Assembly (NCBI GenBank): GCA_963823665.1
Contig: CAWGMQ010000005.1
Location: forward strand, 1,888,001-1,952,000
DNA from: an uncultured Planctomycetota bacterium
Lineage (GTDB): Bacteria; Planctomycetota; Planctomycetia; Isosphaerales; Isosphaeraceae
Direction of reading: 5' to 3'
Length of the DNA stretch: 64,000 nucleotides
The notes beneath the pieces are model-generated. The model worked only from the letters and a program-made list of their open reading frames with translations. It was not told where the DNA came from and did not search any database. The first letter of the stretch is position 1. Each line of letters opens with the position of its first letter. Positions 22,328-40,371 of the stretch are shown piece by piece. Both the position numbers and the translations under genes were made by a program.

Positions 22328-22603
22328 TCAATCGATCACTGCAGTCACGACACCCGAGCCGACCGTCTTGCCACCCTCGCGGATCACAATCCGGCTGCCA
22401 GTCTCCAGGGCGATCGGCTTGTCCAGGCTCACGTCCAGCGACGTGTGGTCGCCGGGCATCACCATCTCGACCCCCTCGGGCAGCGTCAATTCGCCGGTCA
22501 CGCTTGTCGTGCGGAAGCAGAACTGCGGCTTGTAGCCACTAAAGAAGGGCGTATGCCGACCGCCTTCGTCCTTGCCGAGCACGTAGACCTCACCACGGAA
22601 TCG
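22328..22603 (-). pseudogene. tuf: Isolated EF-Tu domain III remnant (divergent tuf fragment)
   Basis: [57 protein letters not shown]; no G-domain upstream. Confidence 0.88.
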
Positions 22604-26588: not shown

Positions 26589-26882
26589 TCAGTTCTCTCG
26601 ACCGTTACCGCCAGCCAAGCTGATCGTGCGAGCTACCCTTGGCTTGGCAACGCTAACCACCAGCCGCCGCCCGTCGTGCTCTTGGTCGTTGAGTCCCTGA
26701 ATCGCAGCCTCGGCCTCTGCGTCGGTGTCCATCTCGACAAAACCGAACCCCTTGCTACGCCCCATATCACGGTCCTGGATGACCTGGGCGCTCTGCACGG
26801 TGCCGAAGGGTACGAACCAATTCGCCAAATCGACATGCGTCACGGAATAGGTCAAATTTCCGACATACAGCTTTTTCGCCAC
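26589..26882 (-). CDS. RRM-domain RNA-binding protein
   Basis: RNP2 KLYVGNL and RNP1 RSKGFGFVEM; GTG start. Confidence 0.95.
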   Translation of the reverse strand: MAKKLYVGNLTYSVTHVDLANWFVPFGTVQSAQVIQDRDMGRSKGFGFVEMDTDAEAEAAIQGLNDQEHDGRRLVVSVAKPRVARTISLAGGNGREN

Positions 26883-27189
26883 GAGATGATCTTTCTGGCA
26901 AAGACTTTCGACCCGCTCGATTCTTTCTGGGCCGATGAGAAAGGGGCACACAATGGAGCCCATGAGGCGGGAGAGACGAGAAGGGGAAGCAGAAAGCGAT
27001 TCGATGAGAACCCAATATGCTAACTCAATCGTCAAACCAACCAATTGAAGTATAACTAATTTGAATACAGAAAGAAATGACAAAACTTGAAACCTTCTCG
27101 GCTTGACCGAATGGGACGTGCTGTTCTTGATTTTTCTGGTCGCCGAATGGGATTCGATCAGCAGGACCATCCCGGCCCGCCCTTCAGGA

Positions 27190-29132: not shown

Positions 29133-29236
29133 TTGAAGCTCAGCGACGTCATTCCGTGGGGACTGTCTTTCGATACTCGGAGCGATTGAGCTTTGAGTTT
29201 CATCTGGCGTCGATTGAGGAGTTGCTGCGGGTGGCG
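29133..29236 (+). pseudogene. SAM-methyltransferase copy A: N-terminus fused to a C-terminal piece
   Basis: GAGGT RBS and TTG KLSDVIPWGLSFD, then a jump to YSERLSFEFHLASIEELLRVA. Confidence 0.75.
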
Positions 29237-29310
29237 AGGTTGGCAAGCGGCTAGACTCCGACCGGGGCAAGTTTGTGGTGCTGGCGCTGCCGGCGAAGTG
29301 CCAAAAGTCA

Positions 29311-29425
29311 AAGAAAAAAGCCGACCTGGGGGAACCTTTCGCAAAGTTCTCCCAGGTCGGCTTACTCTTTAACGAACCTGCCGGCAGGGCCGGGTTGTCC
29401 TTCGGCCAGTCATCCGACCATTTTC
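29311..29425 (-). ncRNA. Candidate structured leader/sRNA ending in an intrinsic terminator
   Basis: 5' GGUCGG, internal CCGGC/GCCGG hairpin, then AAGCCGACCUGGG..CCCAGGUCGGCUU plus a U-tract; promoter-like boxes directly upstream. Confidence 0.6.
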
Positions 29426-29432
29426 GCCGCTG

Positions 29433-29461
29433 GTTGTACGCTTTCGGGTCGGGGAATGCAA
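29433..29461 (-). promoter_or_regulatory. Sigma70-like promoter for the candidate RNA
   Basis: TTGCAT-17 nt-TACAAC on the minus strand. Confidence 0.5.
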
Positions 29462-29524
29462 GCACTGGCCAGCTCACCGTTTACATTCATAAGTCGAAAG
29501 ATATTTTTATTACATAAATAATTA

Positions 29525-29553
29525 TTGACATTTTGTTCGCTTTCGCCTATAGT
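29525..29553 (+). promoter_or_regulatory. Near-consensus sigma70 promoter upstream of hsp20
   Basis: TTGACA-17 nt-TATAGT, preceded by an AT-rich UP-like tract. Confidence 0.75.
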
Positions 29554-29683: not shown

Positions 29684-30136
29684 ATGACACTCACAAGATG
29701 GGACCCGTCCAACGAGATGGTCAGCCTGCGGGATGCTGTGAACTTCCTGTTCCAGGAGAGCTTCGTGCAACCGACGAGCGGCGCACGGTCAGAACGAGGA
29801 GCCACCACGGTTGCGCTTCCCTTGGATGTTACAGAGGGGGAGAACGATTTCGTGGTGACCGCCTCGCTGCCTGGTATCAAACCGGAAGATGTGCAGACGA
29901 CAGTCCTCGGCGATACCGTGATGATCAAGGCCGAGAGCAAGGCCAATGGAGAGCAGAAGGGCCAGAACTGGCTCATGCGAGAGCGCCGTTCGGGCTCATT
30001 CCAGCGTTCGGTAAACCTGGGCACGCCCATCAATGCCGACAAAGCGACGCACCACTTCGAGCATGGTGTCCTGACGTTGACATTGCCGAAGTCGGAGCAG
30101 GCTCGTCCCAGGCAGATCAAGCTCAATGCCCGCTAG
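29684..30136 (+). CDS. Hsp20 / alpha-crystallin small heat-shock protein
   Basis: RWDP..LRDAVNFLF; LPLDV.E; LPGIKPEDV; RERRSGSFQRS; HGVLTLTLPK; RBS AAGGAG. Confidence 0.95.
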   Translation: MTLTRWDPSNEMVSLRDAVNFLFQESFVQPTSGARSERGATTVALPLDVTEGENDFVVTASLPGIKPEDVQTTVLGDTVMIKAESKANGEQKGQNWLMRERRSGSFQRSVNLGTPINADKATHHFEHGVLTLTLPKSEQARPRQIKLNAR

Positions 30137-30347: not shown

Positions 30348-30751
30348 CGCCTCATGTTCGGGTTATCGGAGAGGGACCTGACGTGATTTCGCAGGTTCGG
30401 CTCAACCTGAGCGGATTTGTGTGGGATTACTTCTGCGATCCCGATAATCCCGGGCGGGCCCGGCTGGCTGCGATGAACGTCTTCTTATCTGATCTTGAGG
30501 TGGGAAAAGCTGAGGGGTGCTATGTTGTTGGTTCTCTGCCGAGCCTGCCGTTTCGGGACGGGCAGTTTGATCTGGCTTTGTGCTCGCACTTGCTGTTTCT
30601 TTACTCGGATCGATTGACTTTGAGTTTCATCTGGCGTCGATTGAGGAGTTGCTGCGGGTGGCGGTGGAGGTTCGGGTTTTCCCTTTGCTGACCTTGGAGC
30701 AGGAGCACTCGCCGTATGTTGAGCCTTTGGTGGGCTGCTTGGCTGAGAAGG
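30348..30751 (+). pseudogene. SAM-methyltransferase copy B (internal deletion, 1-bp frameshift, 3' truncated)
   Basis: RLMFGLSERDLT | VISQVRLNLSGFVWDYF..ARLAAM..LPSLPFRDGQFDLALCSHLLFLYSD..EELLRVAVEVRVFPLL. Confidence 0.8.
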
Positions 30752-31469: not shown

Positions 31470-31814
31470 TTGAGATGGGAAAGGCTGAGGGGCGTTATAT
31501 CGTCGGTTCGCTGCCGAGCCTGCCGTTCTTGGGCGGACAGTTTGATCTGGCTCTGTGCTCGCACTTGTTCTTTCCTTACTCGGATCGATTGAGCTTTGAG
31601 TTTCATCTGGCGTCGATTGAGGAGTTGCTGCGGGTGGCGGCGGAGGTTCGGGTTCTTGACCTTGGAGCGAGAACACTCGCCGCATGTTGAGCCTTTGGTG
31701 AGCTGGTTGGGGGAGAAGGGGTGGAGGGCTGAGATTTGTGGGGTGGCGTATGAATTTCAGCGAGGGGGTGATCGGATGCTTTGGATTGGGAGGCGTGATT
31801 TTGCAGGCGGTTAG
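31470..31814 (+). pseudogene. SAM-methyltransferase copy C (3' part, small deletion near 31655)
   Basis: GKAEGRYIVGSLPSLPF..FDLALCSH..EELLRVAAEVRV / LTLEREHSPHVEP..YEFQRGGDRMLWI. Confidence 0.8.
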
Positions 31815-32788: not shown

Positions 32789-33165
32789 GGGGGGCGAGCC
32801 CGGCTCGGTGCGATGAACTTCTTCTTATCGGACTTTGAGAGGGGAAAAGCTGAGGGCGCTATGTCGCGGCCTCGCTGCCGAGGCTTCCGTTTCGGGACGG
32901 GCAGTTTGATCTGGCTCTGTGCTCGCACTTGCTGTTTCTGTACTCGGATCGATTGAGCTTTGAGTTTCATCTGGCGTTGATTGAGGAGTTGCTGCGAGTG
33001 GCGGCGGAGGTTCGGGGTTTTCCTCGGTTGACCTTGGAGCGGGAGCACTCGCCGTATGTTGAGGCTTTGATGAACTGGTGGGCTGAGAAGGGGGTGGAGG
33101 AGCGAGATTTGTGGGGTGGCGTATGAGTTTCAGCGAGGGGGTGATCGGATGCTTTGGGTTGGGAG
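32789..33165 (+). pseudogene. SAM-methyltransferase copy D (3' part, frameshifted)
   Basis: GRARLGAMNFFLSDFERGKAEG / ..FDLALCSHLLFLYSDRLSFEFHLALIEELLRVAAEVR.. / YEFQRGGDRML. Confidence 0.8.
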
Positions 33166-33232
33166 GGATGATCATCCAAACCGCTTTGTTACTTCCGCGG
33201 AGAGGTAATCGATCGCCTCCAGGACCGGTAAT

Positions 33233-40190: not shown

Positions 40191-40371
40191 GAAGTTGACG
40201 GTAAGCGCGCCGCAGAGCGGCATAAAGAGCGTTCCCACGCGGAGCGTGGGAACGAGGAGGCGACGCGCGGTCGCTGGGTGCATGAGAGCAAGGAAGTTGA
40301 CGGCAAGCGCGCCGCAGAGTGGTATAAAGAGCGTTCTCATGTGGAGCGTGGGAACGAGGAGGCGACGCGCG
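40191..40371 (+). repeat. Two direct copies (79 bp, 102-bp period) of a REP-like element
   Basis: GAAGTTGACGG.AAGCGCGCCGCAGAG.GG.ATAAAGAGCGTTCCCACGCGGAGCGTGGGAACGAGGAGGCGACGCGCG at 40191 and 40293; internal GTTCCCACGC/GCGTGGGAAC hairpin. Confidence 0.85.

Follow-up and report, generated by a model that had tools for sequence, protein, structure and literature searches.

A planctomycete family of attenuator leader RNAs, probably worked by MpsC/DUF2294 proteins, and its orphaned copy in an Isosphaeraceae genome

Introduction

What does a promoter-led, structured RNA do on a strand where no gene follows it? The window analyzed here, a 64,000-nucleotide stretch of the genome of an uncultured Planctomycetota bacterium of the Isosphaeraceae (assembly GCA_963823665.1, contig CAWGMQ010000005.1, positions 1,888,001 to 1,952,000), carries such an element on its minus strand. 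The original prediction, made from the letters alone, described an orphan leader or small RNA with the layout of a transcriptional ON riboswitch or attenuator, in which a helix P1 and a terminator exclude each other. Here we place the element in a dispersed RNA family and conclude, with a probability of roughly 0.62, that the family attenuates transcription in cis under the control of an MpsC/DUF2294 protein (PF10057) and that the window copy has been orphaned and is probably decaying.

Results

Two mutually exclusive predicted folds of the window element

The element consists of a putative promoter, a rod-shaped hairpin closed by P1, and a predicted terminator that shares one strand with P1:

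29433..29461, minus strand: putative sigma-70-type promoter, TTGCAT (29461-29456), 17 nt, TACAAC (29438-29433)
29355..29419, minus strand: 63-nt rod (predicted antiterminator) with core 29418-29356, from covariance model R1, pair counts and mutual information
29414..29419, minus strand: 5′ strand of the switching helix P1, GGUCGG, from the sequence and the fold of the 67-nt part
29360-29355, minus strand: 3′ strand of P1, CCGACC, also the left arm of the terminator stem
29310..29361, minus strand: predicted intrinsic terminator, stem 29361-29320, U-tract 29319-29314

One G-C pair beyond the 63-nt core extends the rod of the window copy to 29355..29419. The computed fold of the full leader is the terminator, at -65.7 kcal/mol (z -6.9), a value that none of 200 shuffles reached. 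Taken by itself, the 67-nt 5′ part adopts the P1-closed rod at -27.2 kcal/mol (z -2.4), a value that 4 of 200 shuffles reached. Imposing P1 on the full leader carries a computed penalty of 11 kcal/mol, so that rod and terminator are mutually exclusive in the folding model, and the promoter-led minus-strand layout that had been predicted is confirmed in its positions and its exclusivity. A consensus promoter scan of the window did not list the promoter of this copy, because its -10 box lacks the final T, and the list from the same scan also omitted the terminator, presumably because its stem is long and interrupted. An open reading frame on the opposite strand (29275-29517) is the source of the 'KKAD..VGLL.NEP' translation noticed earlier and had no match in a Pfam search.

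Rfam 15 gave no match in the whole window at gathering thresholds, and near the element a search to E=10 returned only chance-level miRNA-like hairpins, a scaRNA and RT-12 (17.7 bits, 44.2 required). No Rfam family reached its gathering threshold at 20 homologous loci, or at 15 MpsC-bearing loci, the sister RNAs described below among them. The RNA family is thus new to Rfam and uncatalogued there, in line with the original prediction, which could assign the element to no known class; the suggested likeness to ZMP/pfl riboswitches finds no support, with no such match even to E=10.

A patchy family of dispersed copies

Covariance model R1 was built from 64 of 77 non-redundant copies and uses the first, bulged pairing register of the rod. 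In the genome of the window it identifies 26 copies, which score 52-87 bits, and a search down to E=1 adds no others; half of them (13) lie in one main island (C10:2.42-2.49 Mb). Within the window R1 finds a single copy at 72 bits, with a runner-up at 14.7. These matches in genome and window speak against a chance origin of the element. A DNA search recovered more copies in this genome and across its bacterial family, where R1 matches 50 of 121 genomes; in a second bacterial family 36 of 121 near-complete genomes match. An even sample of the phylum contained the RNA strongly in only 4 of 150 other genomes and marginally in 2. A pattern scan of a collection of species genomes gave at least 125 loci, with 119 planctomycete titles and 6 others among the matches listed, and viral contigs had no match to the pattern used. 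The distribution across the phylum is patchy and clustered.

Several individual loci deserve mention. A contig of genome G271, which is titled as an archaeon, carries a full module of the RNA with genes for MpsC-B/CsrA and MpsC-A (L238:11997-16108), split by insertion-sequence-like open reading frames, indicating either horizontal transfer or a chimeric assembly; the other five non-planctomycete titles may be misbinned. Genome G123 has two leaders in series before MpsC-B with a small open reading frame between them, and does so on two contigs (L239:669-736 and 1182-1250; L240:888-955 and 1405-1473). In the long-leader subclass, promoter and rod are separated by a further hairpin of variable form, often GGAG...CUCC, which lies within the 45-50 nt upstream of most island copies. 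About 200 nt past one leader copy lies a slightly sub-threshold match to a group II intron 3′ end (L036:1773-1849, 38.6 bits).

Structure and covariation of the rod

The rod core is exactly 63 nt long in 126 of 160 copies and is best read as a near-symmetric irregular duplex in which position i stands opposite 64-i. The symmetric register (16-48) replaces a first, bulged one (13-48); both have similar overall scores, which makes the reading of the middle part tentative. Purine-purine mismatches are conserved and the internal loops contain invariant nucleotides; the apical loop varies in sequence and reaches at least 20 nt in some copies. The top pairs by mutual information across 81 non-redundant copies include 21-43, 24-40, 29-35, 16-48, 27-37, 19-45 and 20-44. 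No pseudoknot or junction signal emerges, in keeping with an unbranched rod.

Pairing is present in 97.5% of the cells of alignment A2, with compensatory changes at 5 of 20 pairs. Alignment A7, with 67 diverse copies, has compensatory changes at 13 of 20 pairs, more than all 500 shuffles and all slid controls; being fitted to the model in the first register, A7 leans toward that model. The covariation lies in the upper stems. P1, for which covariation between GGUCGG and CCGACC had been expected, contributes none at its five pairs in A2, where the collecting pattern had fixed the 5′ strand, and a single cell in A7. This lack of compensatory change follows from an almost invariant core: the two inner G-C pairs of P1 are identical in all aligned copies (64/64 in A2, 67/67 in A7), an invariance that is neutral on pairing and speaks neither for nor against it. 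The outer pair of P1 is broken in 20 of the 67 copies in A7. Likenesses to c-di-GMP-II, SAM-I and kink-turn motifs were set aside, there being no Rfam match and the required G-A positions varying among copies.

Leaders of same-strand genes

Gene strands and neighbors were assigned with a simple codon-bias gene caller built for this analysis. Of the 144 copies whose flank is long enough, 134 have the next gene behind the RNA on the same strand, 9 have it on the opposite strand and 1 has none; the median distance is 116 nt. The upstream neighbors divide into 70 on the same strand, 71 on the opposite strand and 2 without a neighbor. A terminator sharing the 3′ strand of P1 follows in 184 of 196 copies. 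A promoter of the TTG-17-(-10) type precedes 156 of 196, compared with a mean of 18 and a maximum of 27 in 50 base shuffles. The lowest-energy fold is the terminator state in at least 121 of 136 copies, with a median gap of 7 kcal/mol, which points to OFF as the default state.

The genes behind the leaders include those for MpsC, DUF3309, CsbD, DUF1328, YflT, BON, HPr, CsrA and Band 7 proteins, as well as GroEL, sigma factors, histidine kinases and response regulators, and the main island additionally contains ferritin, Crp-like, SpoIIE, glycan and Pmp3 genes. From the known roles of these families we take the set to resemble a general stress regulon. Together, the terminator overlap, the upstream promoter and the same-strand downstream gene identify the RNA as a cis-acting attenuator leader, and we hold with high confidence that the family works in cis as an attenuator, mostly before stress, glycogen and signaling genes. 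The orientation of homologs relative to genes is not random; a repeat of the REP or MITE type, for which random orientation and no promoter of its own would be expected, is therefore rejected. The architecture has both the overlap of aptamer and expression platform that characterizes riboswitch classes and the terminator-exclusive leader hairpin before same-strand genes that characterizes protein antitermination.

The window copy as an orphan

Three features flank the terminator and promoter of the window copy:

29250..29309, minus strand: post-terminator leader remnant, from a blastn match to a relative (L022) down to 29273 and side-by-side leaders
29166..29236, plus strand: methyltransferase-like gene fragment, from repeat family D3, own-genome search and translation
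29684..30136, plus strand: divergent Hsp20 gene (Pfam PF00011) with its own consensus promoter at 29525-29553

The remnant resembles the leaders of relatives that precede a sigma-factor or response-regulator gene. This likeness ends at about 29273-29250, where an inverted methyltransferase fragment takes over and occupies the expected start of the regulated gene; the fragment marks the rearrangement that orphaned the leader. It is one of four overlapping plus-strand fragments of a single methyltransferase-like gene (29166-29236, 30452-30751, 31490-31799 and 32792-33172) that lie about 1-1.4 kb apart with small unrelated open reading frames between them and are absent elsewhere in the genome; a longer copy at 30383 has a weak Pfam match to Methyltransf_11. 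The series suggests a site at which integration or rearrangement has happened more than once. Past the truncated leader the gene caller places an opposite-strand gene first, and about 1.4 kb separate the leader from the start of the closest gene on its own strand; the element is an orphan, in line with the original prediction. The Hsp20 gene is a neighbor and does not lie behind the leader, an arrangement that recurs in G043. In one relative a leader-HPr unit is followed by an RRM gene similar to that at 26589-26963 in the window, and judging by this likeness the window gene may be the former target.

The window copy falls in a short-leader subclass that is dispersed outside the islands. Behind the seven closest relatives examined in this subclass are HPr (twice), a sigma-70 factor, a response regulator, a small protein and, twice, no gene; among eight short-leader copies examined, three (the window copy and those of G043 and G014) have no same-strand gene behind them. 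The final base of the -10 box is C in the window copy and T in seven of seven other short-leader relatives, and two usual rod pairs, 15-49 and 25-39, are broken. Given this damage and the missing gene, decay after gene loss is the simplest reading; service as a decoy may be an alternative. The window copy is probably a stray, dispersed family member that lost its target gene in a local rearrangement, and its product would be at most a terminated RNA of about 110 nt. In RNA-run contigs from four metatranscriptomes, relatives of the Hsp20 gene were covered and the leader region had no coverage, a result that is uninformative either way.

Two observations concern the window beyond this locus. A short minus-strand open reading frame at 22328-22582, probably a gene fragment, reads to us as the C-terminal part of an EF-Tu-type protein, and at 40191-40371 a REP-like 79-nt sequence containing a 25-nt palindrome occurs twice in direct orientation, with 102 nt between the two copies.

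Association of the RNA with MpsC genes

Five PF10057 genes lie in the main island; an MpsC-A gene is at C10:2435702-2436091. In 32 of 143 copies the gene directly behind the RNA is MpsC-B, and in 30 of 143 MpsC-A is divergently encoded upstream, with both arrangements at 21 copies. The RNA is often positioned between two MpsC genes. By eye, genomes with one or two RNA copies have them mostly beside MpsC genes while the other neighbors vary.

Across the 121 genomes of the window's bacterial family, 48 have both RNA and PF10057, 2 the RNA only (these genomes are 89% and 54% complete), 6 the protein only and 65 neither; in the same order, the control island gene DUF3309 gives 44, 6, 13 and 58. 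The 121 near-complete genomes of the second family give 30/6/8/77 for MpsC-A, 23/13/4/81 for MpsC-B and 29/7/22/63 for DUF3309. The association with the RNA, expressed as phi, is 0.87 and 0.73 for MpsC in the two families, compared with 0.69 and 0.51 for DUF3309, values that rank candidates and are no proof: the genomes share ancestry and do not count as independent samples, and DUF3309 co-occurs as well. As DUF3309 also tracks the RNA, the co-occurrence may in part reflect one mobile stress island. When MpsC-A matches in the second family are limited to close ones, by a threshold of E<=1e-45 picked after the data were seen, 28 genomes qualify and all of them have the RNA. Searches for MpsC-A were negative in the RNA-positive genomes G175, G007, G025 and G273, and in the second family 6 of 36 RNA-positive near-complete genomes have no MpsC-A match.

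MpsC subtypes, sister RNAs and fusions

MpsC genomes without an R1 match encode another MpsC subtype, which is then often followed by a promoter and a shorter hairpin overlapping a terminator. This sister hairpin has the same basal core as the rod, GG..GA opposite UA..CC, and the genes behind it encode PEP carboxykinase, argininosuccinate synthase (ArgG) and, in Anoxybacillus, a bicarbonate permease (SbtA). A descriptor of core plus terminator, written after the regions had been seen, matches 9 of 20 MpsC-adjacent regions and leaves 11 without a match; after shuffling, done 20 times, it never matches any of the 20, and it has no match on the opposite strand. In G241 (L267), past MpsC, a sister leader precedes a frameshifted gene that by eye resembles a sodium-dependent bicarbonate permease. 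A third MpsC subtype is followed by terminator-ended leaders (L253:3775-4025, L273:745-1150 and L274:1200-1470), two of which precede isocitrate dehydrogenase; these resemble the sister RNAs, fail the descriptor and may represent further subtypes.

Domain fusions tie MpsC to both enzymes and signaling proteins. In G132 an MpsC domain is fused to the N-terminus of PEP carboxykinase (L282:589-2424). Receiver-MpsC fusions of about 285 aa account for 11 of 11 candidates scanned and, by hand count, for 68 of 120 longer homologs among the matches listed; a fusion to PAS is also present. Judged from these protein sequences, MpsC appears to take the place of the output domain in response regulators, as ANTAR does; the GRGP motif seen in stand-alone MpsC-A is missing from most receiver-MpsC fusions.

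AlphaFold models MpsC-A with confidence (pLDDT 94) as a helix, two strands, two helices and two strands. Foldseek returned no match to the MpsC model at E<=0.001, other searches gave no solved homolog or atlas neighbor, and the best VIA-align match reached Z 7.5 (rmsd 3.7, 86 aligned residues). With no clear match to a solved RNA-binding fold, the model lends no support to RNA binding. The predicted complex of MpsC-A and MpsC-B scored 0.18, which speaks neither for nor against such a complex.

Discussion

Proposed mechanism and alternatives

In the mechanism that we propose, RNA polymerase would start 10-70 nt upstream of the rod and the nascent RNA would fold as the 63-nt rod. By default the more stable terminator, as the computed folds have it, would capture the 3′ strand of the rod, and transcription would presumably stop there. 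MpsC-A, the subtype encoded beside the leaders, may bind the conserved basal part of the rod and hold P1, which would allow read-through into stress, glycogen and signaling genes. MpsC-B, a divergent paralog behind the leader, is a possible feedback modulator, and receiver-MpsC fusions may couple the switch to two-component signaling. We think it likely, by a modest degree, that MpsC is the operator of the RNA family.

Of the layout originally predicted, the attenuator stands; a ligand-sensing riboswitch is possible, and the genomic evidence favors a protein partner. As a riboswitch, the RNA would belong to an unrecognized metabolite- or ion-sensing ON class, with MpsC a neighbor or target only because both serve one signal, such as CO2/bicarbonate, osmolarity or a nucleotide messenger. 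High sequence conservation and fixed length, invariant internal-loop nucleotides and an aptamer overlapping the terminator would suit such a sensor, as would the RNA-positive genomes without a detected MpsC-A and the CO2/bicarbonate enzymes and transporters behind the sister leaders. Against this stands a rod with no branch, junction or pseudoknot signal. Moreover, MpsC-A lies upstream, outside the control of the leader, yet stays adjacent across lineages, the RNA subtype switches along with the MpsC subtype, and regulon content differs widely between subtypes. RNA tracking MpsC more tightly than the control gene, together with synteny, sister RNAs and fusions, makes a protein-operated switch likelier than a riboswitch, which we regard as unlikely.

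The protein could instead be a CsrA-like, RRM or processive antitermination factor reading the attenuator, with MpsC an island passenger. CsrA-family genes do occur behind some leaders, adjoining or fused with MpsC-B, an RRM gene lies behind the leader of one relative, and the island moves as a block; by eye, however, most minimal loci lack CsrA-like genes and share only the MpsC genes and the RNA, and the sister RNAs beside other MpsC subtypes occupy unrelated gene contexts. Such a reader is quite improbable in our judgment. Slightly more improbable still is that the terminated RNA is itself the product, as a small RNA or protein decoy, or that the element is a dispersed repeat without regulatory switching: short-leader copies lacking a gene behind them and numbers of up to 26 per genome would fit, but the near-constant same-strand gene close behind, a promoter for each copy, the viral contigs without a match to the pattern used, and the damage to the -10 box and two pairs of the window copy all point away from it.

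On the reading that MpsC operates the switch, a wider and tentative proposal, to which we give slightly less than even odds, is that DUF2294/MpsC proteins form an unrecognized, multi-phylum family of RNA-binding antiterminators and two-component output domains with a cognate rod-terminator leader for each subtype. It would comprise a CO2/bicarbonate branch (PEPCK, SbtA, MpsAB) and a planctomycete stress branch with up to about 26 leaders, in which MpsC-A is the activator, MpsC-B provides feedback and receiver-MpsC is gated by phosphorylation. To our knowledge, few families of RNA-binding antiterminators have been described; if the proposal is true, one more would join them, a regulator of a new kind that acts on genes by binding RNA; a function would be assigned to an uncharacterized domain found in Bacillus subtilis and staphylococci, two-component systems would gain an RNA-binding output domain, and many planctomycetes would switch their general stress regulon by attenuation. 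The claim about MpsC lends itself to a direct test, for which a 110-nt RNA and a 14-kDa protein suffice. The window copy itself carries little biological weight: it leads into the family and illustrates how rearrangement can strand a leader.

Comparison with known systems

In transcriptional ON riboswitches such as ZTP/pfl, c-di-GMP-II and SAM-I relatives, the 3′ strand of the aptamer is common to the terminator, and ZTP riboswitches have purine and folate genes downstream. The RNA described here likewise shares the 3′ strand of its rod with the terminator but is unbranched and has no Rfam match in the window copy or at the 20 loci; ZTP membership is further rejected on the stress and signaling genes downstream. 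Word-level resemblances to riboswitches are lost in the family consensus. The Rhodopirellula-1 motif (Weinberg 2010) is also rejected: by eye, its alignment rows in the part of the PMC2864571 supplement consulted differ, and a term search of the text and supplements of that paper gave no description of the RNA or of MpsC as a regulator. Planctomycetes and DUF2294 go unmentioned in the main texts of PMC5737381, whose supplementary list of all 224 motifs may still include the RNA, and PMC11109978. Literature searches, with subscription papers mostly outside their scope, found the five short motif words together in no paper, and searches on planctomycete motifs, DUF2294, mpsC/ybcI antitermination and MpsC/YbcI as response-regulator output returned nothing relevant.

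MpsC of the Staphylococcus aureus mpsABC locus and B. subtilis YbcI belong to the same protein family, PF10057 (DUF2294). We take ybcI to belong to the B. subtilis ndhF operon. Unlike in S. aureus, the planctomycete MpsC genes sit in a stress island and not beside mpsAB. S. aureus grew normally after an mpsC deletion and did not need the gene for transport, as given in the portion of PMC6689103 consulted, and the Pfam name therefore does not fix a transport role. Neither that portion nor the consulted part of a 2026 preprint on the B. subtilis operon (10.64898/2026.09.08.750065) gives a regulatory or RNA-binding role for MpsC/YbcI, and the latter part mentions neither leader, terminator nor mpsC. 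Excerpts of two surveys list leader-like RNAs before ndhF in both species, S. aureus RsaX05, annotated 'Cis-acting leader of ndhF?' (PMC2790875), and the 158-nt B. subtilis ncr181 (PMC2965217), which parallel the planctomycete RNA in their description as leaders.

The closest mechanistic likenesses are to protein antitermination. In the RAT/BglG-SacY-LicT systems, with their CAT-domain proteins, a protein-stabilized stem-loop partly overlaps an intrinsic terminator, and the RAT is about 30 nt long, as outlined in the consulted part of PMC12591593; the layout is alike, as is a regulator gene near its target, but the rod has 63 nt and the planctomycete regulon is one of general stress where that of RAT/BglG is sugar uptake. 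BglG-type partners have CAT and PRD domains, whereas the candidate partner PF10057 has neither, and a scan of 69 island proteins found no CAT or PRD domain; with the rod length and the missing Rfam match, this excludes membership in RAT/BglG-SacY. ANTAR proteins (AmiR, NasR, receiver-ANTAR) act by antitermination at 5′ leaders, where phosphorylation or a sensor governs their RNA-binding output domain, at targets of two hairpins with conserved six-base loops, as outlined in the same part of PMC12591593. MpsC resembles them in its fusions to receiver and PAS domains, and both have many targets per genome. The RNA here differs as one long rod with a variable loop, at least 20 nt in some copies, and a conserved basal part, which rejects ANTAR membership, and the MpsC fold is alpha/beta with no match to ANTAR. 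By analogy, the planctomycete RNA family would work like RAT/BglG or ANTAR antitermination while belonging to neither.
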